Shown here piece by piece: positions 17,656-35,363 of a DNA stretch of 64,000 nt (within the stretch, counting starts at the first letter, position 1; each line of letters begins with the position of its first letter). Source of the DNA: a bacterium (lineage in GTDB: Bacteria; Myxococcota_A; UBA9160; UBA6930); assembly GCA_024228115.1 (NCBI GenBank), contig JAAETT010000546.1, positions 4,109-68,108 on the forward strand, given 5' to 3'. Made by a program: the position numbers and the translations under genes. A model generated the notes under the pieces. That model worked only from the letters and a program-made list of their open reading frames with translations, was not told where the DNA came from and made no database searches.

Positions 17656-19011
17656 TTGACGGCCTCGACCACGCCGAGCGACGCCCCCGCCCGCCCCTGG
17701 CGCTCGATCCCGATCGATGGGATCGGGGATACCCTGCGCGCGCTGCCGCGCATCAAGCGCGACATGCTCGGGGTCGTCAGCGAGCGCTGCCAGCGAAATG
17801 GCCTGGTCGTGAGGCAGAACCAGGGCCCGATCCGCGCGGTCAACCTCTTCGGGCCCGATGCGAACCGCTTCGTGCTGCTCGATCGCGACGAGATCTTCTC
17901 GGCGAAGAAGTCGTGGGATCTCATCATGGGTCGCATCTTCACGAACGGCCTGCTGCTTCGGGACGGTGAAGATCACCGTTTCCATCGCCGTCTCCTGCGT
18001 GAGGCGTTCCGTACGCCCGCGCTCCAGTCGTACCTCGACCAGATGAACGAGGCGCTCGTTCCGTGGGCCGAGGGCCTCGCGCTCAAGGGCGGGCACATCC
18101 GCGCCTTCCCGGTGATCAAGCAGATGGCGCTCGACATGGCGTGCCGGATCTTCCTCGGCCTGCCGCCCGGCTCCGACAACACGAAGATGAACCACGCGTT
18201 CGAGGCAACGGTGGCCGCCTCGATGTCGATCCTGCGTCTACCGATCCCCGGCCTCGAGTTCAATCGCGGGCTCGAGGGGCGCAAGTACATGATCCGCCGC
18301 TTCAAGCGCATGATCCAGGAGCGCCGCGGAGGAGAGAGCGGCGGCTCCGACACCTTCACCCGCCTCTGTCATGCCGAGAACGAGAATGGCGAACGCCTCG
18401 CCGACCAGGAGATCATCGATCACATGATCTTCCTGATGATGGCGGCCCACGACACGACGACGAGCGCTCTCACCTCGCTGCTCTACGAACTCGCGGCCAA
18501 CTCCGCGTGGCAAGAGCGCCTGCGAGACGAGGTGCATGCGTTCGACAAGCCGGCGATCGAGTGGGACGACCTGCTCCACGTGAAGGACCACATCCTCGCG
18601 ATCCAGGAGGTGCTGCGCCGCTATCCGCCGCTCTCGACGATCCCGCGCATGGCGACGGCCGACTTCGAGTGGGGGGGCTACCGGATCCCCGCCGGCACGA
18701 TGACGATCATCTACCCGATCCACACGCACCACATGGCCAAGTGGTGGAGCGATCCGTTCCGTTTCGACCCCGATCGCTTCGCGGAGGGCCGCGAGGAACA
18801 CAAGCGACACAGCCACTCGTACGTGCCCTTCGGCGGCGGCAACCACATGTGCCTCGGGCTGCGCTTCGCCGAAACCCAGATCAAGGCCGCGCTCTTCCAG
18901 TTGCTGCAACGCGTGCGCCTCAGCGTGCCCGAGGGCTACGTGATGCCGGTCCAGCAGGCGCCTATCTCGAAGCCGGTGGACGGGCTACCGCTCACGCTAG
19001 AGCCGCTCTAG
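17656..19011 (+). CDS. Cytochrome P450 (resembles the CYP136-like group)
   Basis: I-helix MMAAHDTT, ExxR (EVLR), FRFDPDRF and heme motif FGGGNHMCLG. Confidence 0.93.
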   Translation: MTASTTPSDAPARPWRSIPIDGIGDTLRALPRIKRDMLGVVSERCQRNGLVVRQNQGPIRAVNLFGPDANRFVLLDRDEIFSAKKSWDLIMGRIFTNGLLLRDGEDHRFHRRLLREAFRTPALQSYLDQMNEALVPWAEGLALKGGHIRAFPVIKQMALDMACRIFLGLPPGSDNTKMNHAFEATVAASMSILRLPIPGLEFNRGLEGRKYMIRRFKRMIQERRGGESGGSDTFTRLCHAENENGERLADQEIIDHMIFLMMAAHDTTTSALTSLLYELAANSAWQERLRDEVHAFDKPAIEWDDLLHVKDHILAIQEVLRRYPPLSTIPRMATADFEWGGYRIPAGTMTIIYPIHTHHMAKWWSDPFRFDPDRFAEGREEHKRHSHSYVPFGGGNHMCLGLRFAETQIKAALFQLLQRVRLSVPEGYVMPVQQAPISKPVDGLPLTLEPL

Positions 19012-19166
19012 GAGGCGCATACGGAACAACGCGTCGAACGCGGGCCACCGCGCAAGGCCCCGGATGCGTCTCGATATGCGGGCATGAGTCTGCGAGAATT
19101 GGGCACTCGCAGGAACAGGTGCTCGGTGAGAACGTGCGACTCGAACGGGCAGCAGAGGGATGCAAG

Positions 19167-19472
19167 GTGGCCGATCTCAAGACAGTGACCCACGCCGAGT
19201 TCGAGGAGCGCCTCGAACAGGATTTTCGATTGCACGTCGACGAGTCTCAGATCATCGACCTGAAGCTCACGCGCGTCGATCCGCAGGGTCCGGCCGAGAC
19301 GGAGAGTGGACTCCGCCGGCCCTTCTCGCTGACCTTCGAGGCCCATTCGGCCTCCCTGCTTCCGCAGCGGATCTACCAGGTCGAGCACGCAGCACTGGGT
19401 CGCCTTGAGCTCTTCCTGGTGCCGGTCGGGCGTGAGGGAGAACGCGTCCTCTACGAGGCGGTCTTCAACTGA
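19167..19472 (+). CDS. DUF6916-like small beta protein (cytoplasmic)
   Basis: GTG after AGAGGGA; ...RPFSLTF...LLPQRIYQVEHAALGRLELFLVPVG...YEAVFN, the pattern typical of proteins beside tail-collar triplets. It is the C-terminal part of the 18063..19472 frame. Confidence 0.75.
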   Translation: MADLKTVTHAEFEERLEQDFRLHVDESQIIDLKLTRVDPQGPAETESGLRRPFSLTFEAHSASLLPQRIYQVEHAALGRLELFLVPVGREGERVLYEAVFN

Positions 19473-19487
19473 GTCCGCCCGATCGGG

Positions 19488-20039
19488 CTATCCCGCAGGG
19501 GCTCCCGAAGGCCCGTTCTCCTCGCCTCCCTGGAGGGCGGTGATTTCGTCCAGAGCCCGGTGCATGAGCTTGTAGATGCCGACGTCGTCCACGGGCGCGA
19601 AGCCCATCCGCTGGTAGAGGCGCATGGCGGGGTTCGATTCCTCGACGTGGAGGCTCACCAAGCGCCGGCTCTGCTCCGCCTCGTCGAGCACGTCCTGAAC
19701 GAGGTGGGTCCCGATGCCGCGTCCCCGGCGCTCGGGAAGCAGCGCGATGTCCATGATGCGGATCTCGCGCTTCATCGGCTCCACGTAGTAGCGGCCAATG
19801 GTCCGGCCCCCCTCGCAGACGAGGTCGTATCGCGCATCGGGGTAGTGCTGGTGGTAGTGACGGTGCTGGAGCTCGAACTGACTGCGCAGGAAGGCGCCCT
19901 TCTGAGCATCGCTCCAGGGGACGATCGCCATCTCGTCGGCGCGGGAGGATGAGTACACCCGGTAGAGAAACTCGAGGTCGCCATCGGAAGCCGGGCGCAG
20001 GGTCACGCCGGGGTACGACGTGGTCCGGTCGTGGGGCAT
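19488..20039 (-). CDS. GNAT family N-acetyltransferase
   Basis: LRPASDGDLEFL N-terminus; acetyl-CoA motif A IALLPERRGRGIG; LHVEESNPAMRLYQRMGF. Confidence 0.9.
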   Translation of the reverse strand: MPHDRTTSYPGVTLRPASDGDLEFLYRVYSSSRADEMAIVPWSDAQKGAFLRSQFELQHRHYHQHYPDARYDLVCEGGRTIGRYYVEPMKREIRIMDIALLPERRGRGIGTHLVQDVLDEAEQSRRLVSLHVEESNPAMRLYQRMGFAPVDDVGIYKLMHRALDEITALQGGEENGPSGAPAG

Positions 20040-20055
20040 CGATGGCGCCGGCCCG

Positions 20056-20580
20056 TCAGCTGCGGGAGGGGTAGAGCCCAACCAGCGCAATGATGTAGTT
20101 GAGCGCCAGCAAGGGCTGCACGTTGTTGTGCATCTGACCGCCGCCGACGGGGCTGATCACGTTGACGTCCATGTCGACGACGTCTGCGTCGCCCGCGGCC
20201 ACCGCCGGCGCATACCAACTGGCTCCGCCCAGGCCTCGCGTACCGGTCGGGTTCGCCGCCTCCAGGTTCGAGTAGCCCACCATCGCGTGGCTGTGAGGCG
20301 GGACCTGGGCCTCGCTCAGGGTCTGCGTCTCGGCGCCACCCCTCTCCCCCAGCCGGCGAGAGGTGAGGCCGGGGCCGCGACCCGGGTGCATGGGCGCACG
20401 CCCCTGCAGGTCCGGAAGCGCCGTCGTGGTGCGTCCATCGCCCCCGTAGGTGGTGCCGATGAGGGAGAAGAGCGCCGTATTCTGGGCGATCGGCAGGAGC
20501 TGGCCGTTGCAGAAGGCCCAGCCTCGCGGAGCGAAGTTGCCGGCGAAGATCCTGATCTCGGCGATGAAGGGCTCGGACAT
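20056..20580 (-). CDS. Phage tail-collar domain protein (so-called microcystin-dependent protein), paralogue 3
   Basis: MSEPFIAEIRIFAGNFAPRGWAFCNGQLLPIAQNTALFSLIGTTYGGDGRTT.ALPDLQGR ... HNNVQPLLALNYIIALVGLYPSR. Confidence 0.9.
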   Translation of the reverse strand: MSEPFIAEIRIFAGNFAPRGWAFCNGQLLPIAQNTALFSLIGTTYGGDGRTTTALPDLQGRAPMHPGRGPGLTSRRLGERGGAETQTLSEAQVPPHSHAMVGYSNLEAANPTGTRGLGGASWYAPAVAAGDADVVDMDVNVISPVGGGQMHNNVQPLLALNYIIALVGLYPSRS

Positions 20581-20652
20581 GGCGCGTCCTCTCTATGGGT
20601 TGGCTCTCGCTCTGCTGGCAGTTCGTTCATCGGGTCCTGGTGGCGCTCCGAA

Positions 20653-21171
20653 TCAGTGGCGCGACGGGTAGATCCCAAGGAGTGCGATGATGAAGTGGAT
20701 GCACAGGAAGGGCATGAGGTTCCCGTGGGACTGCCCTCCTCCGGGAGCGGGTGTGATCGCCCGCGTATCCATGGCTCTCGGCCCCGCCGTGCCGTAGAGA
20801 TTGCTTCCGGTGGCTGTTGCCACCGTGTGACCGGCCGGGTCGGAATCCTCGGCGGTTTCGGCCGAGGCGTACCAGGAGTGGCTGTGACTGGGGAGCTGAT
20901 TGGTGGTGACGCTCACCTGCTCCTCCCCGCCCTTCGACCCGAGTTGCCGAGGGCTGAGGCCGGGCCCCGAGCCCTGGTGGTTCGGAATACGACCGCGCAA
21001 GTCCGGAAGGCCGAAGGTGGTGCGTCCGTCGCCCCCGTAGATGGTCCCCAGGAGGCTGAAGAGGGCGTCGTTCTGGGAGACCGCGAGGAGCTGACCGTCG
21101 CAGAACGCCCAGCTGCGCGGCGCGAAGTTACCCGCGAACATTCGGATCTCGCCGACGAAGGGCTCGGACAT
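20653..21171 (-). CDS. Phage tail-collar domain protein, paralogue 2
   Basis: MSEPFVGEIRMFAGNFAPRSWAFCDGQLL...GTIYGGDGRTTFGLPDLRGR ... HGNLMPFLCIHFIIALLGIYPSR. Confidence 0.9.
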   Translation of the reverse strand: MSEPFVGEIRMFAGNFAPRSWAFCDGQLLAVSQNDALFSLLGTIYGGDGRTTFGLPDLRGRIPNHQGSGPGLSPRQLGSKGGEEQVSVTTNQLPSHSHSWYASAETAEDSDPAGHTVATATGSNLYGTAGPRAMDTRAITPAPGGGQSHGNLMPFLCIHFIIALLGIYPSRH

Positions 21172-21203
21172 TTCTCTTCTCCTGGCTCTGGATCTATTTC
21201 CGG

Positions 21204-21731
21204 TCAGATTCGCGAAGGAAAGAGACCCTGAAGTGCAATGCAGTAGCTCAGCGTCAGATAGGGCTGCATGTTGTTGTGCCCCTGCCCTCCGCCGCCGTTC
21301 GCGACCGTGCTGGTGTGCAGGCTCTGCGGGCTGGTGCGGTCGCTGTAGGGGATGATCGAGAAGGGCCCGCCACTCGTGACGGCGAGCAGCTTGCCCTGCG
21401 GATCGGTCGAGCTCACCGTGGCGCTCGTCGCCCTGGCCTCGTGCTCGTGTTGGGGGATCTCTTGGGTCGAGAGTTGGTGATTCTCCTCTCCGGTCTTCTG
21501 TCCCAGCGGGTGCGAGGCCCCGTTCGAGCTTCCGACGTGGATCGGCGTACGGCCCCGAAGGTCAGGGAGAGCGAAGCTGGTCCTCCCGTCGCCGCCGTAC
21601 GTGGTACCGAGCAGCGAGTAGAGCGCCTGGTTCTGGTTGATGGGGAGGATCTGTCCATCACAGAACGCCCAGCCGCGGGGCGGGAAGTTGAAGCCGACGA
21701 TCTTGATCTCGGCGAGAAAGGGCTCGGACAT
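21204..21731 (-). CDS. Phage tail-collar domain protein, paralogue 1
   Basis: MSEPFLAEIKIVGFNFPPRGWAFCDGQILPINQNQALYSLLGTTYGGDGRTSFALPDLRGR ... HNNMQPYLTLSYCIALQGLFPSR. Confidence 0.9.
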   Translation of the reverse strand: MSEPFLAEIKIVGFNFPPRGWAFCDGQILPINQNQALYSLLGTTYGGDGRTSFALPDLRGRTPIHVGSSNGASHPLGQKTGEENHQLSTQEIPQHEHEARATSATVSSTDPQGKLLAVTSGGPFSIIPYSDRTSPQSLHTSTVANGGGGQGHNNMQPYLTLSYCIALQGLFPSRI

Positions 21732-21789
21732 GGAGCATCTCCTGGGCGTTCAGTGCCGTGCCTGGCGCCATCGGCAGGCGATCGAGCGC

Positions 21790-22242
21790 TCACGCAGCGC
21801 CCGCGCAAGAAGGGGTCAGGGGCTTGAGGGAGCTGAAGGACGCCTCGTAGTAGGTCCCGTCCGGGGCTACGCCCGCCGGTTGCAGGTGGAGTTGGAAGCC
21901 AGGGCCATCCGGCGGTGCGACGGCGTAGAGTCCCTCGTCGATCTCCGTGTGGGATGAGCCGCGAAACGTGACCGTGAACTGGTCGAGCCGCGACGAGACG
22001 TCATGGGGAACCACCTCGACCAACTCGAGGGATCGCCAGGCGCCGTCGTCGAAGCCGAACCACTGGCCCATCCGATCGTTGTAGTAGCCCCGCGTGAATT
22101 CGGGGCCCTCGGCCCGTGCCGGATCACCGGCGAACAACACGATCGGACCGAGCGCGGTGGCCGCGACGGTCGCCGTGGTGCCCTGCAAGAAGCGGCGTCT
22201 CGGGATCTTCGGGTCGGTATCTCTTCGTTCCGAGCTTCCCAT
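21790..22242 (-). CDS. Tat-signal DUF6916-like protein
   Basis: Twin-arginine signal PRRRFLQGTTATVAATALG...ARA; then LELVEV...DQFTVTFRG...EGLYAV...FQLHLQP...YYEASF, which aligns by eye with the 19167 protein. Confidence 0.7.
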   Translation of the reverse strand: MGSSERRDTDPKIPRRRFLQGTTATVAATALGPIVLFAGDPARAEGPEFTRGYYNDRMGQWFGFDDGAWRSLELVEVVPHDVSSRLDQFTVTFRGSSHTEIDEGLYAVAPPDGPGFQLHLQPAGVAPDGTYYEASFSSLKPLTPSCAGAA

Positions 22243-22269
22243 CTCTCGACCTCCTCATCTGGCTTCGAC

Positions 22270-23799
22270 TCAGGTCCCGACTCCATTCCGCCGCCGCATC
22301 GCCAGCGCGATCAACCCGAGGCCGAGCAGCGCACCGGTCGCCGGCTCGGGCACCACGATGAAGTGAATCGTAGCGGACACGTAGCTGCTGATGCTCTGAA
22401 GATACAGATCCGCCACGCGCACCTCGAGCGTCGCCATGCCGAGTCCGAAGATCGAGGCGAGGGTTGCGTCGTCGACGAACTCCGCGCCGGCCCCGATCAG
22501 GGCCGCGCCAAAGTCGGTGAAGAGCACGCCGCCATCGTAGAGCCCGATCTCGAGCCCCTCGAAGTCGACGACACTTGCGTTGACGGCCAGGTCCAGGTCA
22601 TCGACGTCGAGCTCGAAGAGGAGGCCGCCCGGCTGGGAGCTGGCCGATGCATCCAGAATCACGGGCAGGGCATTGCCGTAGGACACCGTCATCGTGTCGG
22701 TGCCGCCGTCGAGGCCCGTCAGCTCCTCGTGCACCTCAATCTCCCAGGTCGCCGTATCGAGGGTCGATCGCAGGCCCGAGTCTGCGATGCCGACGGTCTT
22801 GTTGACCATGTCCACGGTGCGGGTTCCGCTGGGCGGGGGCTGCAGCACGAAGGGGCTCTCCGAGGGGATGATGTTGGGCCGGTCCGCATCGGCGTCAGCG
22901 CCTACCAGCGGCACGTCCTGCGCGCCGCCCTGGACGCTTCCCAGATTCGACCAGGTATGCGTCAGGAAGTCCTCCCCATCGCTGCGCGCCGCGCCGAGGT
23001 CGTTGTCCTGCCAGGTGCCGTCGCCGTTGCGGAAGGTGCCGCCATCGGTGGTGATGCTGAGGGTGCTGGCGTCATAGGTCATGTCGGCACCGGCCTCGGC
23101 CACCACAGCCTCGGCAGCGACGATGGCATTCACCGAGCGAATCACCGTGCCGTAGGCCTGGCCTTCGTCCCGGATGTTCACCACGGTCGAGGGCGTCGGA
23201 ACCGGGATGCCATCTCCCGGATCGATGCCGGCCACCTCGGTATTGAGCTGGATGAAGTTCAGGTTGCCACCGGGCCGGTCGACGGCGTTGCCCTCGAGGC
23301 GGTAGCCCAGGAAGTGGGCGGGAGTCGCCGCCGGGGACGTGAAGTAGATCTTCGGGGTCGGGCTGGCGTAGGGGTCGCCCGGCCAGTTCAGGTGGCTCTG
23401 GTCGGTCTGGGTGTAGACGAAGGGCGTTCCGCCGCTGTCGAAGCCCTCCATCGGCACGATCACCTCGACGTTGTTGGCGTTCTCCACGAGCCCGCCGCCG
23501 GTGGGTGGAGCCGATCCTCCAGCCAGCGCGACGCCGTAGACGTCGAGGCCGTTGATGTTCTCCGCCGTGGCGGTGACCGGGTCGTAGGTCGTCTTGATGA
23601 CGAACTTACCGCCCTTGTTGAGCGCGGTGCCCGAGCCGGGCTGGGCGGAGCCGGGGTTCTCGCTCCAGATGCCGATCTGGATGATGTCGATCGGAGCCGC
23701 TTGCGCGGTTCCGGCCCCCAGCGCAAGGGCGAGAAGGATGGACAGGGCCGTGGGGGGGGCGACGATCGCCAGGAGCTGCGGCAGGCACAACCGTCTCAT
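22270..23799 (-). CDS. PEP-CTERM sorting-domain surface protein
   Basis: Signal peptide ending GTAQA; acidic Gly/Thr-rich body; C-terminus VVPEPATGALLGLGLIALAMRRR. ATG 23799 has an AAGGGG RBS. Confidence 0.9.
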   Translation of the reverse strand: MRRLCLPQLLAIVAPPTALSILLALALGAGTAQAAPIDIIQIGIWSENPGSAQPGSGTALNKGGKFVIKTTYDPVTATAENINGLDVYGVALAGGSAPPTGGGLVENANNVEVIVPMEGFDSGGTPFVYTQTDQSHLNWPGDPYASPTPKIYFTSPAATPAHFLGYRLEGNAVDRPGGNLNFIQLNTEVAGIDPGDGIPVPTPSTVVNIRDEGQAYGTVIRSVNAIVAAEAVVAEAGADMTYDASTLSITTDGGTFRNGDGTWQDNDLGAARSDGEDFLTHTWSNLGSVQGGAQDVPLVGADADADRPNIIPSESPFVLQPPPSGTRTVDMVNKTVGIADSGLRSTLDTATWEIEVHEELTGLDGGTDTMTVSYGNALPVILDASASSQPGGLLFELDVDDLDLAVNASVVDFEGLEIGLYDGGVLFTDFGAALIGAGAEFVDDATLASIFGLGMATLEVRVADLYLQSISSYVSATIHFIVVPEPATGALLGLGLIALAMRRRNGVGT

Positions 23800-24000
23800 T
23801 GAGGATCCCCTTCTTAGGCGGAGTCCCCTTCCCGTCTGCACTCTAACCCGATGTGGCGGAGCGGTCGAGTAGCTTGGCATCTTCGGCCCGCGGTCGTACT
23901 CAGTGGCATCGGCGCGGGAGGTCTCGTCTGGCGTCGCGCCAGGATCGGACCGGCGGGGTACCGGAGCTGCCTCCTCAACCGCCGCAGAACAGCCCTTCGG

Positions 24001-24423
24001 CTACAGCAGGCGGTCGAACCCCGAACGGACGGTCGCGGCCAGGTCGCGCAGGATGGCTTCCAGGATACGCGTGGCGGCGCGGGGGGCATCTTCCGAGAGC
24101 CGCAGGAAGGCGCTTCGGGGGAAGAGCAGCAGGAGGGAGGGTTCGCTGGCCACCAATGTCAATTCCCGCCGGCCGAGCGCCGCCAGGGAGGTATCGCCGA
24201 GGTGACGCCCGGCTTCGAGCGTGCCCAGCTCGCCGGCCTGGCTGTTCGACAGCATCAGCGAGCCTTCCGCCAGCAGGATGAGACCGTCGGCTTCGTCACC
24301 TTCGTTCTGGAGCACCTCTCCCTCCACCAGCTCACGTTCTTCGAGGAGGGAGGTCACGAGTTCCAGCTCTTCGTCTGTGAGATCGCTGAAGGGGGCGAAG
24401 ATCTTCGCGCTGGTGGCGCTCAC
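24001..24423 (-). CDS. Stand-alone cyclic-nucleotide-binding domain protein
   Basis: FSDLTDEELE...EGEVLQNEGDEADGLILLAEGSL...HLGDTSL...RRELTLVA; no HTH. Confidence 0.8.
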   Translation of the reverse strand: MSATSAKIFAPFSDLTDEELELVTSLLEERELVEGEVLQNEGDEADGLILLAEGSLMLSNSQAGELGTLEAGRHLGDTSLAALGRRELTLVASEPSLLLLFPRSAFLRLSEDAPRAATRILEAILRDLAATVRSGFDRLL

Positions 24424-25961
24424 GGCAGGATCCTTCCGAAGATCGTCTTGAGCAGCGTGACCGGATCCCGCTCGCCTTCCAAGGGGACCAGGAAGACCGA
24501 AGCCTGATCCAGCAGTCCGAGGCTCGATTCGATTTCGTCCACGGCCAGCTTCTCGCCCTTCGGGAGCATGAAGGCGTGGAAGATCCGGGCGTCATGGCGC
24601 TGGGCGCGAAGCCGCTCGACCAACGGACGCAAGTGCTCCTCACCTTCTCGCTGGGGCGAGTTCATGAGCAACAGAGTGCCGAGTGAGCCCTGGGCAAGGG
24701 CGGGCCAGCAAGCTTCGAAGCGCTTCGCCGTGGGGACGTGGAGCAGTTGGATCCCCACGCCATCGTCCACACCCAGCCGGCCAAGGGTCGCAACATCGTC
24801 CTGGCGGATCTCCCCGCTACGGAAGGCCGGCTCGAGACGGAAGCCCGGTAGCGCGGTCAGCAGCCGCGCAAACTCGCGGGTCATGCCGGGATCCGTCGCG
24901 GCCACGAGCAACTTGGCATCCCGTGCGGGCACCCCGCGCGGCCGGCCACTCTGCAACCACTCCCGCAATCGCTCCTGCTGGGCGGGCTCGAAGAGGACAT
25001 CGACGCGACCTGCTTCACCGTATTCCGGTTCGCGCCGCAACTGCACGATGCCGCGATCGCAAAGCGCCTGCAGTGTGCGGAGCACCTGGTAGTCCGGGAA
25101 CGTCGAGTGGTCCATCAGCTCGCCCACCCGATCGTCATGCTCCAGGAGATCGAGCAATTCCTCGGTGACGGGATGAACGGCATTCGGCAGTTCTTCGCGG
25201 GGCACCAGCAGGCGCACGCGGCCGGAGGGCGGCGGGAGCGAGCCCTTCAGCTGATCCCATTCGTCGAGCTGGCGAAGGGCCTCCATCAGGAGTACTCGCG
25301 TGGGGGTGGTGATCCGGGGTGTCATCGTGACCGTGCCCGGCCTGAAGGCAAAGCCCCCCTCGCGCCAGGCCAACAGCCGGAACAGGGCTTTCTCTCCCTC
25401 CACTCGGCCAACGGTCGCCTGGATGAGATCGCCTTCGCGTAGGATGAGCGCGCCGCGCTCACCGGGTGCGCCCCCCTCCTGCGGGCTGAGTTCGATGGTG
25501 CCCGTACGCCGATTCATGTGAAAGAGCTGCAACAGGTCGGTCAGCGGGATCTGCGAGAGCTTTCCCTGGACCGCCTGCTCGGCCTCTGCTTCCCGGTCCA
25601 CCGCATCGATGCGCTTGCGTTGCGCCAGGATGGCCTCGATCCGCAGGGCGATCTCTTCGCCCGTTGCCTCGGCCGAGAGCGTATCGTCGAAGAAGCCCCC
25701 GGCTGGCTCGCTCCCCAGGAAGAGGAAACGCACACCCTTCGTCCGTGGGTTGGCGCGCAGGATCTCGACCAGGGTTCCCGCGTCGATCAGTTCCAGGTCC
25801 GATACCGCGACCACGACATCCGGAACGTCCGCGAGCGCTGCCTCCAGTGCCGCCGCGCCGTGGCGAGCAACGCTCGTTGCGTAGCCTCTGGCAGCGCAGG
25901 CTTCGGCGAGATCACGCCCACGGCTCGGGTGCAGTTGTGCGACGAGGATGGAGCTAGTCAC
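24420..25961 (-). CDS. Pseudo-receiver + DUF4388 + winged helix + degenerate small-GTPase-like domain protein
   Basis: REC-like N-terminus lacking the acidic pocket; DUF4388 pattern QGKLSQIPLTDLLQLFHMNRRTG...GEKALFRLLAWREGGFAF...LLMEALRQLDE; C-terminus resembles the MglA/CvnD G-domain. Confidence 0.7.
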   Translation of the reverse strand: MTSSILVAQLHPSRGRDLAEACAARGYATSVARHGAAALEAALADVPDVVVAVSDLELIDAGTLVEILRANPRTKGVRFLFLGSEPAGGFFDDTLSAEATGEEIALRIEAILAQRKRIDAVDREAEAEQAVQGKLSQIPLTDLLQLFHMNRRTGTIELSPQEGGAPGERGALILREGDLIQATVGRVEGEKALFRLLAWREGGFAFRPGTVTMTPRITTPTRVLLMEALRQLDEWDQLKGSLPPPSGRVRLLVPREELPNAVHPVTEELLDLLEHDDRVGELMDHSTFPDYQVLRTLQALCDRGIVQLRREPEYGEAGRVDVLFEPAQQERLREWLQSGRPRGVPARDAKLLVAATDPGMTREFARLLTALPGFRLEPAFRSGEIRQDDVATLGRLGVDDGVGIQLLHVPTAKRFEACWPALAQGSLGTLLLMNSPQREGEEHLRPLVERLRAQRHDARIFHAFMLPKGEKLAVDEIESSLGLLDQASVFLVPLEGERDPVTLLKTIFGRILP

Positions 25962-27783
25962 CGATCGGAATCCCCAGATCGTGGCTCAGGCCGAAGGCCA
26001 GCTGCTCGACGACCACCGGGTCGGCGGTGTGAAAGGTGGTGGCGTCCTCTGCGCCGCCATCTTGGACATACGCGTACGAGGCGCCTTCTCCAAGGTAGAC
26101 GAGGAAGGGCTGACCTGCGCCGACACGTTTCGGAGAGACCCAGGTGACCGGCACACCCGGCATCAGCTGCTCATCGCGATCGGCGAACAGCACGACCTCG
26201 GTGCGCGGTGTCGTTCCCCGCAGCTGTTCCAGGGCGGAACGCAGCTTCGCCGTCTGCCCGTCCAGGGGCGCGACGAACAGCAATCCCCGGTGGTGCGGGT
26301 TGCGGCTGACCTCGTCCAGCAGGAAGCCGGCCATCTGGTCGCCGAGACCGGTGGCCCCTTCTTCACCCTCTGCCAGCAGGTTCTCCAGCAGCCCGCGAAA
26401 CGGTGCCTCCTCCAACTCGTAGAGCCGGAGCAGGCTGCGGCGATCCGCGTCGATGCGCCGATCCAGGCATGCGCGCAGCTCTTGGGGATCGCTTCCGTTG
26501 GCAGGGAACGTGGCCATGGCACTCAGCACGGCCGGCCGGTCGTCCGCCAACTGTTGAAACGCGGGGCTGCGCTCGAAGGCCGCCCGGAGGCGTCTCTTGG
26601 CCACGACCGAGCCCAGGTTGTCGCATTCGGGCAGTAGCACCACGTACTCGTGCTCGGTTTCGGTCCCGAGCAGATCCGTCGTCCGCACCGCCCGCTGGAG
26701 ATCGCCGACGACGGCCTGGATCCAGACGTTGAACTCTCCGGGAGAGAGGCGTGCTCGTACGGGCCCGATCGGATCGAGCGCGATGCGCACCACGGAGAGG
26801 CTGCGGCCGAAGCGCTTGGCCTTCTGCAACTCGTACTCCAGGACGTCATCGAAATAGGCCCGCGTGTAGGCGTGGGTCGTCGGATCCTTGAACGAACGTC
26901 GCTCGAGAGAACGGAAGGCAATCGCGTTGGCGAGAGCCTGGCTCGCGAACAATGCGAATCGTTCGGCGACCTCCCGATCGCCATCGTCGAACTCGGAGCC
27001 ATCGACCCGATCGGTGAGCCGGAGCAGACCCAACATCTCGCCATCGTGGCGAATCGGAACGAAGAGCGGCGCCCGCGGCGCGCCCGTGTCCTCTGCCAGC
27101 AGGGACTGGCAGTCGGGCTCGGCCAACGGGCGAAGAACCGCGGGCAGGTCTCCGACCTCGATCTCCTCCACCTCATCCTTGACCCGGATCAACCCGCCGG
27201 CGCCGCACAATCGCAGGCGGCTCGGATGGTCCGGATCAGCGAGCCAGGCCACCCCCGCGTGGGCGTTCGTCTCGAGGCACAGGACTTCGACGATACGGTC
27301 GGCAAGCGGCTCGATGGAAAGCGTTGAGAACAAGCCCAGCGCCCGCTCGTACTGGGCGAAATGGCCCATGAACGAGAGGTTCTCTGCCACCAGCCGGTCG
27401 TGCTCGGCGTGCATGGCGCGGCGCTCGAGAATCCCATCGATGGATCGGAGCAACGCCGTGCGATCGATCGGCTTCAGCAGATAATCCGTCGCACCCAGCC
27501 GCATCGCTTCGACCGCGGTCTTGACGTCGCCCACGCTGGTGACGACGACGACGTCCTGCTCTGGCCAGCGCTCCTTGACCTGTCGCACCAGCTCGCGCCC
27601 GTCCATCTCGGGCATGACCAGATCGGTGAGTACCAGGTCCGGCGGCTCCTCCTCCATCAAGGCGAGGGCTTCGGCACCGCTTCCGGCCGTGACCACCTCG
27701 AAATCCTCGCCTCGCAGCAAGTCCTCGAGGAAGACCCGGAAATAGAGCTGGTCATCGACCGCGAGTATCCGCGCCGAGTTCAC
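25954..27783 (-). CDS. Response regulator with REC, GAF, degenerate GGDEF and C-terminal DICT-like domains
   Basis: ILAVDD...DLVLTDLVMPEMDG...YLLKP (intact REC); GAF VPIRHDGEMLGLLRL; GGDEF fold KDPTTHAYTRAYF...RTTDLLGTETEHEYVVLLP. Confidence 0.8.
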   Translation of the reverse strand: MNSARILAVDDQLYFRVFLEDLLRGEDFEVVTAGSGAEALALMEEEPPDLVLTDLVMPEMDGRELVRQVKERWPEQDVVVVTSVGDVKTAVEAMRLGATDYLLKPIDRTALLRSIDGILERRAMHAEHDRLVAENLSFMGHFAQYERALGLFSTLSIEPLADRIVEVLCLETNAHAGVAWLADPDHPSRLRLCGAGGLIRVKDEVEEIEVGDLPAVLRPLAEPDCQSLLAEDTGAPRAPLFVPIRHDGEMLGLLRLTDRVDGSEFDDGDREVAERFALFASQALANAIAFRSLERRSFKDPTTHAYTRAYFDDVLEYELQKAKRFGRSLSVVRIALDPIGPVRARLSPGEFNVWIQAVVGDLQRAVRTTDLLGTETEHEYVVLLPECDNLGSVVAKRRLRAAFERSPAFQQLADDRPAVLSAMATFPANGSDPQELRACLDRRIDADRRSLLRLYELEEAPFRGLLENLLAEGEEGATGLGDQMAGFLLDEVSRNPHHRGLLFVAPLDGQTAKLRSALEQLRGTTPRTEVVLFADRDEQLMPGVPVTWVSPKRVGAGQPFLVYLGEGASYAYVQDGGAEDATTFHTADPVVVEQLAFGLSHDLGIPIGD

Positions 27784-34712: not shown

Positions 34713-35363
34713 TCAGCTGGTCAGATTCTTCAGTACGCCCTTGAGGAAGTCGTCCTCGGATACGGCGAACTTCTCCTGGAAGTCGTGGCGGGCGTCGAGG
34801 AAGCGGTAGACCTTTCGCAGCAGCTCGCGGAAGGTTTCGATGACACCCTCGCCTCGCATGGCTACAGCCGGATAGGTCGGGATGTCGCCCCAGGCTTTGC
34901 GAACTTCTTCGAGGGGTTTCACGTCGGGCAGGTCGCGCTTGTTGAACTGCACGACCTTCGGAATGGCGTCGAAATCGATGCCATTCGATTTGAGGTTCGC
35001 TTCCATGTCGCGCCAGCTGTAGGCGTTGGCACTGGCGGAGGAACGCTGGGAATCGGCGACGAAGACCACGCCGTCGGCCCCTGCGAGGACGACCTTGCGG
35101 GTCGATTTGTGCATCACCTGACCCGGTACCGTGAAGAGCTTCAGCTTCATCATGAAGCCCGCCTGGGTGCCGAACGAGACCGGCAGGAAATCGAAGTAGA
35201 GCGTGCGGTCATCGGCGGTATCGAGGGTGACCATCTTGCCGCGGGTGCTCGGATCGAGAAGCTCGTGGAGCTTCTGCAGGTTCGTGGTCTTCCCCGAAAG
35301 CGCCGGCCCGTAGTACACGAGCTTCAGCACGATCTCTCGGCCGGCCATGTTGATCTGCACCAT
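34713..35363 (-). CDS. mglA: MglA-family small GTPase (orphan, no mglB adjacent)
   Basis: LKLVYYGPALSGKTTNL, DRTLYFDF, FTVPGQV, GADGVVFVADSQ, FNKRDL. Confidence 0.85.
   Translation of the reverse strand: MVQINMAGREIVLKLVYYGPALSGKTTNLQKLHELLDPSTRGKMVTLDTADDRTLYFDFLPVSFGTQAGFMMKLKLFTVPGQVMHKSTRKVVLAGADGVVFVADSQRSSASANAYSWRDMEANLKSNGIDFDAIPKVVQFNKRDLPDVKPLEEVRKAWGDIPTYPAVAMRGEGVIETFRELLRKVYRFLDARHDFQEKFAVSEDDFLKGVLKNLTS

Follow-up and report, generated by a model that had tools for sequence, protein, structure and literature searches.

A candidate Ras-like pseudoGTPase of the MglA/CvnD lineage, fused to PATAN and a degenerate receiver in uncultured Myxococcota

Gene and module layout

The window analysed in this study is a stretch of 64,000 nucleotides (GenBank assembly GCA_024228115.1, contig JAAETT010000546.1) from a bacterium of the Myxococcota_A. 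On its reverse strand, positions 24420–25961 hold an open reading frame with a GTG start which codes for 513 amino acids plus a stop, and it is this gene and its product that are described here. The product is laid out as a pseudo-receiver, a PATAN (DUF4388) domain, a module that is probably winged-helix-like and, at the C-terminus, a domain that is most likely a pseudoGTPase. The GC content at third codon positions is 0.80 in a window with 66% GC, which fits a real gene. A word-indexed protein search returned 583 homologues of the 513-residue protein, and the 120 of them that were listed are all 468–524 residues long (most are ~510–520), with a query coverage of 91–100%. Codon alignments with two relatives (L004 and L005) gave a ratio of non-synonymous to synonymous substitution rates (dN/dS) of 0.11–0.12 over the whole gene, which is a real, conserved gene under purifying selection.

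The family was represented by an alignment of 62 sequences of the full protein, with a mean column identity of 64%. Pfam recognises only DUF4388/PATAN (residues 132–235) in the protein, and an NCBIfam scan gave no match. The full-length AlphaFold2 (AF2) model has a predicted local distance difference test score (pLDDT) of 87 and a predicted template modelling score (pTM) of 0.45. The initial annotation, made from the letters of the window, had described a fusion of DUF4388 with a pseudo-receiver and a GTPase-like end, and both the Pfam match (PF14332) and the layout of the AF2 model bear this out.

Fold of the C-terminal domain and loss of the GTP-binding motifs

The C-terminal domain (residues 348–513; 24423–24920, reverse strand) was delimited using AF2 models, Foldseek, hhalign and a search of its profile against PDB sequences. 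Residues 318–513 were folded separately with an alignment of 38 sequences, and the resulting model (pLDDT 87, pTM 0.85) has the order β1-α1-β2-β3-α2-β4-α3-β5-α4-β6-α5, that is, the six strands and five helices of the complete small-GTPase topology. Compared with the PDB by Foldseek, this model had 576 matches at E ≤ 0.001, of which the 50 best listed are all small GTPases of the Ras superfamily, with no receiver among the matches listed. These have E-values from 1.7e-6 to 3e-5, template modelling (TM) scores of 0.5–0.63 and sequence identities of 9–19%. They include an Asgard Arf (8oum, E 1.7e-6), MglA entries from Thermus and Myxococcus (3t1t, 6h17, 3t1q, 6izw, 3t12 and 5ymx, with E 3.5e-6 to 2e-5, TM 0.53–0.59 and ~15% identity), as well as Rab5, Rab6, Rab11, Rab27, Arl and Rap. 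The initial annotation had proposed a comparison of the C-terminal ~170 residues with MglA and Arf folds, and the best matches are indeed Arf, MglA and Rab, at E ~1e-6. The last ~165 residues are thus predicted to form a G-domain fold; judging from the model by structure alone, MglA is not favoured over Rab or Arf.

The motifs through which such a fold would hold GTP are missing. In the last 200 residues of the 62 family members, neither a Walker A motif (GxxxxGK[ST]) nor [NT]KxD nor xxPGQ/DxxGQ was found in any sequence (0/62 for each). The equivalent of the P-loop, placed by column frequencies and the hhalign register described below, reads AATDPGMTRE (residues 354–363; 24873–24902, reverse strand). 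The position of the Walker A Lys is T361, which is Thr in 56 of the 62 sequences and Lys in none, that of the Mg-Thr is R362, and the two Walker Gly positions hold Ser/Ala and Ala/Val. Inside this remnant, an acidic residue (D357) is present in 47/62. Only two non-helical residues lie between β1 and α1 in the full-length AF2 model, which means that the model has no anion-hole loop. The G3 equivalent, located by hhalign and column frequencies, is HVPTA (residues 408–412; 24726–24740, reverse strand), in which the Pro typical of MglA and CvnD (P410) is invariant and the sole survivor of the motif; the Gly position holds A, T, S or V and the Gln position is variable. The Trp that follows switch II is also invariant. 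At the G4 equivalent, this protein has PKGE (residues 467–470; 24552–24563, reverse strand) where, by column frequencies, most family members have RKGE; there is no Asn, and Glu stands in place of the Asp, while K468, G469 and E470 are found in 56, 51 and 50 of the 62 sequences, respectively. The same three readings (AATDPGMTRE at the P-loop position, HVPTA for G3, no NKxD) had been made by eye in the initial annotation and stand unchanged.

Two distant members within the class (L100 and L101) and the sole relative found outside it (L099) were also checked for live G motifs, and all three are without a P-loop. Since the P-loop Gly and Lys, the switch-II Gly and Gln, and NKxD are gone in every member, GTP binding and hydrolysis have most likely been lost, and the domain, as far as sequence and predicted structure indicate, would be a pseudoGTPase of the class-i type.

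Ancestry of the domain

The alignment of 38 sequences was compared by hhalign with an alignment of actinobacterial CvnD-type (MglA group 2-like) GTPases, giving a probability of 96.5% and an E-value of 7e-10 over 141 columns. The register covers β1, the P-loop, β2-β3, G3, the conserved Trp, β4 and G4. In it, KLLl of the present family pairs with KIVV of the CvnD type at β1, sxdpxaTr with GPfaAGkT at the P-loop, GRLxVD with GRItID at β2, HVPxx with GtPgQ at G3, FAPxW with FdFMW after switch II and hGALGtLlLl with EGmlGyVll at β4, and the G4 regions are in register as well. The segment VATLGRLGV...GTLLL (residues 390–432) aligns column for column with the CvnD block. The parallel with an MglA/CvnD-type segment, first seen by eye, was therefore correct, because the blocks align in register when profile is compared with profile.

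A HMMER search with a hidden Markov model (HMM) of the domain, run over 1.84 billion representative proteins, produced no more than 254 matches at E ≤ 0.001. Among the 150 matches listed, most of the long proteins (~475–570 residues) hold the domain at their C-terminus, and the others are mostly short and fragment-like. Two stand-alone proteins of ~180–190 residues (P0251 and P0256) are also among them, at E ~1e-7; both match Pfam PF03029 above its cut-off, a family that is also matched by the window's own MglA (34713–35363). The relatives of P0256 are annotated as ATP/GTP-binding proteins of Actinomycetota, which we read as CvnD-type conservon GTPases. Both proteins have Thr for the Walker A Lys (GPPHAGTTT and GPSAAGTST), the same substitution as in the present family, which probably represents an independent loss.

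Searched against PDB sequences, the domain profile found IFT22, an atypical Rab-like GTPase (E 0.0098), and Rab11 (E 1.5), in the expected register in both cases. A single-sequence phmmer search of the 513-residue protein against the PDB gave weak receiver matches and none in the C-terminus. No signal was obtained by hhalign between the domain and the window's own MglA, either as a single sequence or as an alignment of 15 sequences, a result that is weak negative evidence because of the very low diversity of that alignment. The likeness to small GTPases in the HMM search and in the structural matches lies far outside what chance would produce. Taken at the level of sequence profiles, the C-terminal ~165 residues have their origin in the MglA/CvnD branch of the Ras-like GTPases of bacteria, with the link running via CvnD.

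Selection and conservation within the domain

Codon alignments of residues 348–513 gave a dN/dS of 0.136 with L004 (dS 0.47) and 0.133 with L005 (dS 0.88), values that resemble those of the pseudo-receiver and exceed those of PATAN. The mean pairwise identity of the domain (0.51) is also close to that of the pseudo-receiver. Conservation was scored over the 62 sequences as the mean majority frequency per stretch. By this score the most conserved part is the G4-equivalent loop (residues 467–471, 0.81), followed by β4 (0.78), by β1, β5 and β6 (0.75–0.76), and then by α1 and the C-terminal helix, while the lowest values are those of the P-loop remnant (0.56) and the switch-I equivalent (0.50). 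The family alignment further delimits a C-terminal tail, R-I-L-P-COOH (R510 to P513; 24423–24434, reverse strand), of which R510 and P513 are invariant in the family; the tail is kept in the distant class members L100 and L101 and absent from the out-of-class L099. The dead G domain is kept functional by purifying selection, and we read the former base-binding face and the C-terminal tail as having turned into a putative interaction surface.

The N-terminal modules

Residues 1–128 (25578–25961, reverse strand) were assigned as a pseudo-receiver from AF2 secondary structure, Foldseek and hhalign. They have a receiver fold, with a Foldseek TM score of 0.85 to 3nhm and further matches to CheY4 and the FrzS receiver; Pfam Response_reg (PF00072) has no match in the 513-residue protein. 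When aligned by hhalign with the intact receiver encoded by the upstream neighbouring gene, V53 stands opposite the phospho-acceptor D54, in a column that is mostly Pro in the family, and Q9-L10 opposite the DD pair. The position of the conserved Lys (K109), assigned by reading the alignment, is not Lys. The earlier statement that the N-terminal receiver lacks the DD pair and the phospho-Asp is confirmed by this comparison; the receiver is judged from its sequence to be dead and, since the acceptor Asp is lost, unable to be phosphorylated. In the out-of-class relative L099 (730–2262, genome G003, from another class of the phylum), the receiver seems by reading to have kept both the acceptor Asp (LLVFDD) and Lys-Pro (LLKPY), whereas the G domain already lacks a P-loop, which, if correct, would mean that the GTPase was the first of the two to die.

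PATAN/DUF4388 (PF14332; residues 131–238; 25248–25571, reverse strand) is matched by Pfam with an E-value of 3.3e-23 and 82.5 bits against a cut-off of 25, over residues 132–235 and model positions 1–121 of 122. It is the best-conserved module of the protein, with a mean pairwise identity of 0.64 and a dN/dS of 0.03–0.06 (0.12–0.21 for the pseudo-receiver, in codon alignments with L004 and L005). It is followed by a three-helix module (residues 248–310; 25032–25220, reverse strand), for which AF2 secondary structure gives a strand at 248–251, helices at 264–272, 279–285 and 290–302, and a strand at 306–309. The sequence gives weak hints here to Sta1 (E 0.16) and, in the homologue P0257, to DnaD_N (E 0.009). 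A disordered linker (residues 311–325) and a helix preceding the G domain (326–347) were placed by AF2 and the family alignments (24921–25031, reverse strand). The pLDDT is below 50 at residues 312–320 of the full-length model, and the helix at 326–338, which corresponds to helix 9–20 of the C-terminal model, carries R331 and W335, both invariant in the family alignments.

Operon partners and gene order

The gene lies between two others on the same strand. The upstream partner (25954–27783, reverse strand) codes for 609 amino acids, in which Pfam finds a receiver (REC), a GAF domain and a degenerate GGDEF domain, with a C-terminal domain of ~170 residues behind them. Its stop overlaps the start of the 513-codon gene by 8 nt (GTGACTAG). 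The receiver of this partner is intact (D54), while its GGDEF domain has TEHEY at the A-site and RTTD at the I-site position. Among 66 orthologues of the partner, GG[DE]EF is found in none (0/66) and RxxD in at least 38, the latter being an undercount from an imperfect pattern. Downstream, a protein of 140 residues with a cyclic nucleotide monophosphate (cNMP)-binding domain is encoded at 24001–24423 (reverse strand; Pfam PF00027, E 4.9e-12), and its start overlaps the stop of the 513-codon gene by 4 nt (GTGA). With overlaps of 8 and 4 nt between starts and stops, all three genes look translationally coupled.

Gene neighbourhoods were compared over 80 loci taken from species-level genomes. In all 77 loci with room for it, the upstream partner adjoins the gene, and the cNMP-binding gene does so in 69/79 (tblastn). 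The gene trio and the wider gene order recur in relatives at 71% and 47% identity, the conserved order being methylmalonyl-CoA mutase, MeaB, an MglA paralogue, ribBA, AAA, VWA, (dipeptidase), miaB, the trio, guaB, guaA and dnaE. In the relatives L001 and L002, guaB directly follows the cNMP-binding gene, while in the window the two are separated by ~6.4 kb (17656–23880) that hold a cytochrome P450 gene (17656–19011, forward strand) and a GNAT/collar/DUF6916/PEP-CTERM cassette. Given the adjacency in L001 and L002, the cassette appears to have been inserted where the gene order is otherwise conserved.

The C-terminal domain of the 609-residue partner (residues 425–609; 25957–26511, reverse strand; ~170–185 residues) is conserved, with the consensus ...RGLLFVAPG...PVTWVSP...FHTxDRxLVEHLAFQLQRDLGIP. 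It was considered as a hidden Roadblock/MglB or DICT domain, but neither found support: a PDB profile search returned nothing, and Pfam, run on 21 members, gave no match above noise, DUF2201 (E 0.009) being the only hint. The canonical phosphate-binding cassette of cNMP-binding domains is G-E-x-A-L...R-[ST]-A. In the 140-residue protein it reads GDTSLAALGRRELTLVA, in which, by eye, Asp takes the place of the key Glu and no Ser/Thr follows the Arg; this domain may thus be degenerate too.

Distribution and the other GTPases of the host

All 80 genome records with the gene are uncultured metagenome-assembled genomes labelled as Myxococcota or Deltaproteobacteria, with a few Spirochaetales. Across 301 genomes sampled evenly from the phylum (58 of the same class and 243 outside it), the profile of the G-like domain matches 47/58 genomes of the class, always once per genome, and 1/243 outside it. 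The family is a class-level, single-copy invention, and model myxobacteria, Myxococcus xanthus among them, appear to be without the gene. In the 6.4-Mb assembly of the host, the profile built from the 38 sequences matches this gene only. Twelve loci carry the label Spirochaetales or Spirochaetaceae (L011, L022, L023, L034, L052, L058, L060, L063, L064, L072, L076 and L078), one of them from an isolate named HK-STAS-MYXO-51; on a locus of the Myxococcota type, such labels are probably taxonomic mislabels in public records.

The window also holds a live member of the MglA family, a paralogue of 216 residues at 34713–35363 (reverse strand), with PF03029/Arf matches, intact motifs (GPALSGKT, TVPGQ, NKRD) and a C-terminal extension of ~25 residues. 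The initial annotation had named an MglA at 34713, and a genuine MglA-family GTPase is what is found there. No mglB is adjacent to it. The paralogue is 63–98% identical across the class, far above the 513-residue protein at equal distances, and other families of the phylum have copies that are 50–53% identical. Orthologues with at least 63% identity are found together with the pseudoGTPase gene in 45/47 genomes, in 34 of these on the same contig at a distance of 6–21 kb (~10 kb in the window), while two genomes (G102 and G222) have the pseudoGTPase gene without the paralogue. The genes in between are housekeeping ones, which makes the synteny weak evidence of a functional tie.

On contig C315, the host has a canonical Roadblock/mglB gene followed immediately by mglA, and a third MglA-like gene lies on C62. 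The single Roadblock (PF03259) match in the host genome is the one beside the canonical mglA, and no Roadblock gene was found in the operon. The host further has eight PATAN genes and five PilT-family ATPases. The seven PATAN/DUF4388 genes other than the one described here are on contigs C249, C167, C700, C578, C151 and C321, and the PATAN expansion typical of the phylum is thus present in this genome. Four of these paralogues, read by eye (C249:75917–76318 and those on C167, C151 and C321), have no G-like C-terminal domain, and their C-terminal regions differ.

Proposed function and alternative explanations

In the reading we favour, to which we assign a probability of roughly 0.7, the 513-residue protein is a four-module adaptor without enzymatic activity, whose dead G domain acts as a docking module in a complex with the co-translated partners. 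The frozen G domain would provide a constitutive protein-docking surface, the candidate surface being the RKGE loop, the β5/β6 edge, the HVP...W remnant of switch II and the invariant R-x-x-P C-terminus, and would keep the protein in a complex with its operon-encoded partners. The real inputs would come from the 609-residue partner, by phosphorylation of its receiver and probably by cyclic di-GMP at the retained RxxD site. PATAN could then join the complex to the motility or polarity machinery, for example to type IV pilus ATPases, as in cyanobacteria. It is the adjacency of the REC-GAF-degenerate GGDEF partner in 77/77 loci that points to docking inside an operon-encoded complex. PATAN genes are known to lie next to mglA and mglB (PMC4316618), and in Synechocystis a preprint reports binding of PATAN regulators to the motor of the type IV pilus (10.1101/2021.06.11.447907). 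It is by analogy with this published context that a step from PATAN to the motility or polarity apparatus is suggested.

Several points weigh against this reading. The pTM of 0.45 of the full-length model indicates that the domains are modelled confidently one by one and their mutual arrangement is not. Docking to either operon partner is deduced from gene context, the partner of PATAN in this lineage is a proposed one, and residues 248–310 are called winged-helix-like from their predicted secondary structure. Nucleotide blindness is itself deduced from sequence and predicted structure. The G4-equivalent loop (K468, G469 and E470) is the most conserved part of the domain and T361-R362-D/E363 are conserved as well, which makes a non-canonical site for a ligand or nucleotide conceivable; CvnD-type GTPases, moreover, hydrolyse GTP despite unusual G4 and G5 motifs (PMC4316618).

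An alternative, in line with the descent of the domain from the MglA family, is that it mimics MglA and competes for MglB, its GTPase-activating protein, or for the effectors of MglA, and so biases the polarity switch. MglA structures are among the best Foldseek matches, and the remnant of switch II (HVP...W...GALG) is well conserved, but the switch-I equivalent is poorly so (0.50) and the detectable homology is to the CvnD branch, with none to the host MglA (in a low-diversity alignment) and a Foldseek identity to MglA of ~15%. The host does have one MglB and three MglA-family GTPases for such a mimic to act on, and PATAN genes are known beside mglA and mglB (PMC4316618); however, no Roadblock gene lies in or near the operon, and the only one pairs with the canonical mglA elsewhere. 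The MglA paralogue ~10 kb away is in conserved synteny, present together with the pseudoGTPase gene in 45/47 genomes, but with ribBA, AAA/VWA, dipeptidase and miaB between it and the operon the linkage may be plain synteny, and G102 and G222 do without the paralogue. The invariable genomic partner is instead the REC-GAF-degenerate GGDEF neighbour in the operon. We consider competition with MglA unlikely, and think docking to the operon partners the more probable of the two. A related and similarly doubtful proposal takes the dead G domain for a copy of MglA/CvnD hard-wired in an "on-like" or "off-like" state, which would dock MglB/Roadblock or an MglA paralogue (possibly that at 34713–35363) and might pass the phosphorylation and cyclic di-GMP state of the 609-residue partner to the MglA polarity module and, via PATAN, to the type IV pilus motor. 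If true, it would amount to a new regulatory layer of bacterial cell polarity made wholly of pseudo-enzymes.

The conserved former base-binding side also bears on whether the domain is still a switch that binds a nucleotide or a second messenger through its conserved RKGE/SLFL-P-LE face, be it GTP/GDP in a non-canonical mode, cyclic di-GMP or a cyclic mononucleotide. Conservation is highest in the G4-equivalent loop (0.81) and the β5/β6 edge (0.75 and 0.76), the elements that hold the guanine base in a normal G domain, and K468 is nearly invariant; the rest of the operon encodes domains of the second-messenger type (GGDEF with I-site, GAF, cNMP-binding), and the closest relatives, the CvnD GTPases, function with deviant G4 and G5. 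Against such a switch speak the Walker A Lys and Gly, found in no member, the acidic D357 within the P-loop remnant (47/62) and the AF2 model, which has no anion-hole loop; in class-i pseudoGTPases (AAGAB, for example), moreover, the conserved loops act as pincers that bind proteins (PMC12490416). We therefore regard a retained ligand switch as quite improbable. Finally, the likeness to GTPases might be no more than that of a generic Rossmann-like α/β fold, such as a second degenerate receiver or a flavodoxin-like domain, with no MglA/CvnD ancestry. The low identity to solved GTPases (9–19%), the moderate TM scores (0.5–0.63) and the empty single-sequence PDB search for the C-terminal region would agree with this, but not the profile-profile E-value of 7e-10 with its motif-by-motif register, the database-wide HMM matches to PF03029 proteins at E ~1e-7, or the listed Foldseek matches, which are all small GTPases and include no receiver. 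With the MglA/CvnD-specific Pro of G3 and the Trp after switch II both invariant, this explanation is largely refuted already and we deem it very improbable.

Comparison with known systems

CvnD, or MglA group 2, is the sole family with significant sequence-profile similarity to the domain (PMC4316618), sharing the GRhxhD of β2, an h-h-x-x-P G3 with Pro, F-x-x-W, the G-x-h-G-h-h-h-h of β4 and the Ras-like fold. CvnD proteins differ in that they stand alone at ~190 residues, have GPxxxGKT and GTPGQ, and hydrolyse GTP; they act with the Roadblock protein CvnB, with CvnC and with a kinase-like sensor, whereas the operon described here has no Roadblock gene and its G-like domain is fused behind a degenerate receiver, PATAN and a putative winged helix, with all nucleotide motifs gone. 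MglA of M. xanthus and T. thermophilus, which is among the best structural matches and has real copies in the host, shares the Pro-containing G3 (T/G-x-P-G-Q) and the association with PATAN genes; it is an active nucleotide switch under MglB, RomR and RomX, and no profile signal links the host MglA to the domain. Genomic coupling to MglB/Roadblock was reported for 390/449 members of MglA groups 1–5 (Wuichet & Sogaard-Andersen 2014, PMC4316618), and this coupling is not seen in the present operon. The MglA group 3 systems (PMC4316618) draw on the same building blocks (receiver-like domain, winged helix, MglA-type domain), but as separate proteins of beta- and gammaproteobacteria in which the GTPase is active and one or two MglB proteins are present; here a single protein unites the modules, with PATAN inserted among them and a dead GTPase, and MglB is absent.

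A G fold without G motifs is also found in the eukaryotic class-i pseudoGTPases (the psGD of AAGAB, pG1 and pG2 of p190RhoGAP, and CENP-M; PMC12490416, PMC5593906). These serve as constitutive protein-protein interaction modules, and in AAGAB conserved loops replace the nucleotide pocket (PMC12490416). They are of independent origin and stand in other domain contexts, and their failure to bind nucleotides was shown experimentally, while for the present domain it is deduced. PATAN together with a receiver, in signalling to type IV pili or polarity, is known from the PatA-type regulators of cyanobacteria (PatA, PixG, PixE and TaxP1). In these, the order is PATAN-REC, the receiver can be phosphorylated and there is no G domain, in contrast to the N-terminal, dead receiver and the added pseudoGTPase of the present protein. 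The PatA-type PATAN response regulators were reportedly treated by Makarova and co-workers in 2006. To our knowledge, work on pseudoGTPases, an emerging class of pseudo-enzymes, has been confined almost entirely to eukaryotes, and the link of PATAN to MglA/MglB, noted from genome context since 2006, has never been explained.

In a search of the full-text literature, neither a Ras-like pseudoGTPase from bacteria nor a protein joining PATAN to a GTPase was found to have been described. The single components (MglA/CvnD GTPases, PATAN, pseudo-receivers and pseudoGTPases) were all known before; by that search, it is the fusion of a bacterial Ras-like pseudoGTPase to PATAN that is new. The family offers a clean natural case of a dead small GTPase under purifying selection through the whole history of a bacterial class, with an obligate partner that looks, by its sequence, like a reader of cyclic di-GMP and phosphorylation. 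If the domain docks components of the polarity or pilus machinery, it would show bacteria turning a switch into a scaffold and give PATAN a biochemical context. In public databases the members of the family are annotated as "DUF4388 domain-containing protein" or "CheY-like chemotaxis protein", which overlooks both the dead receiver and the dead GTPase.

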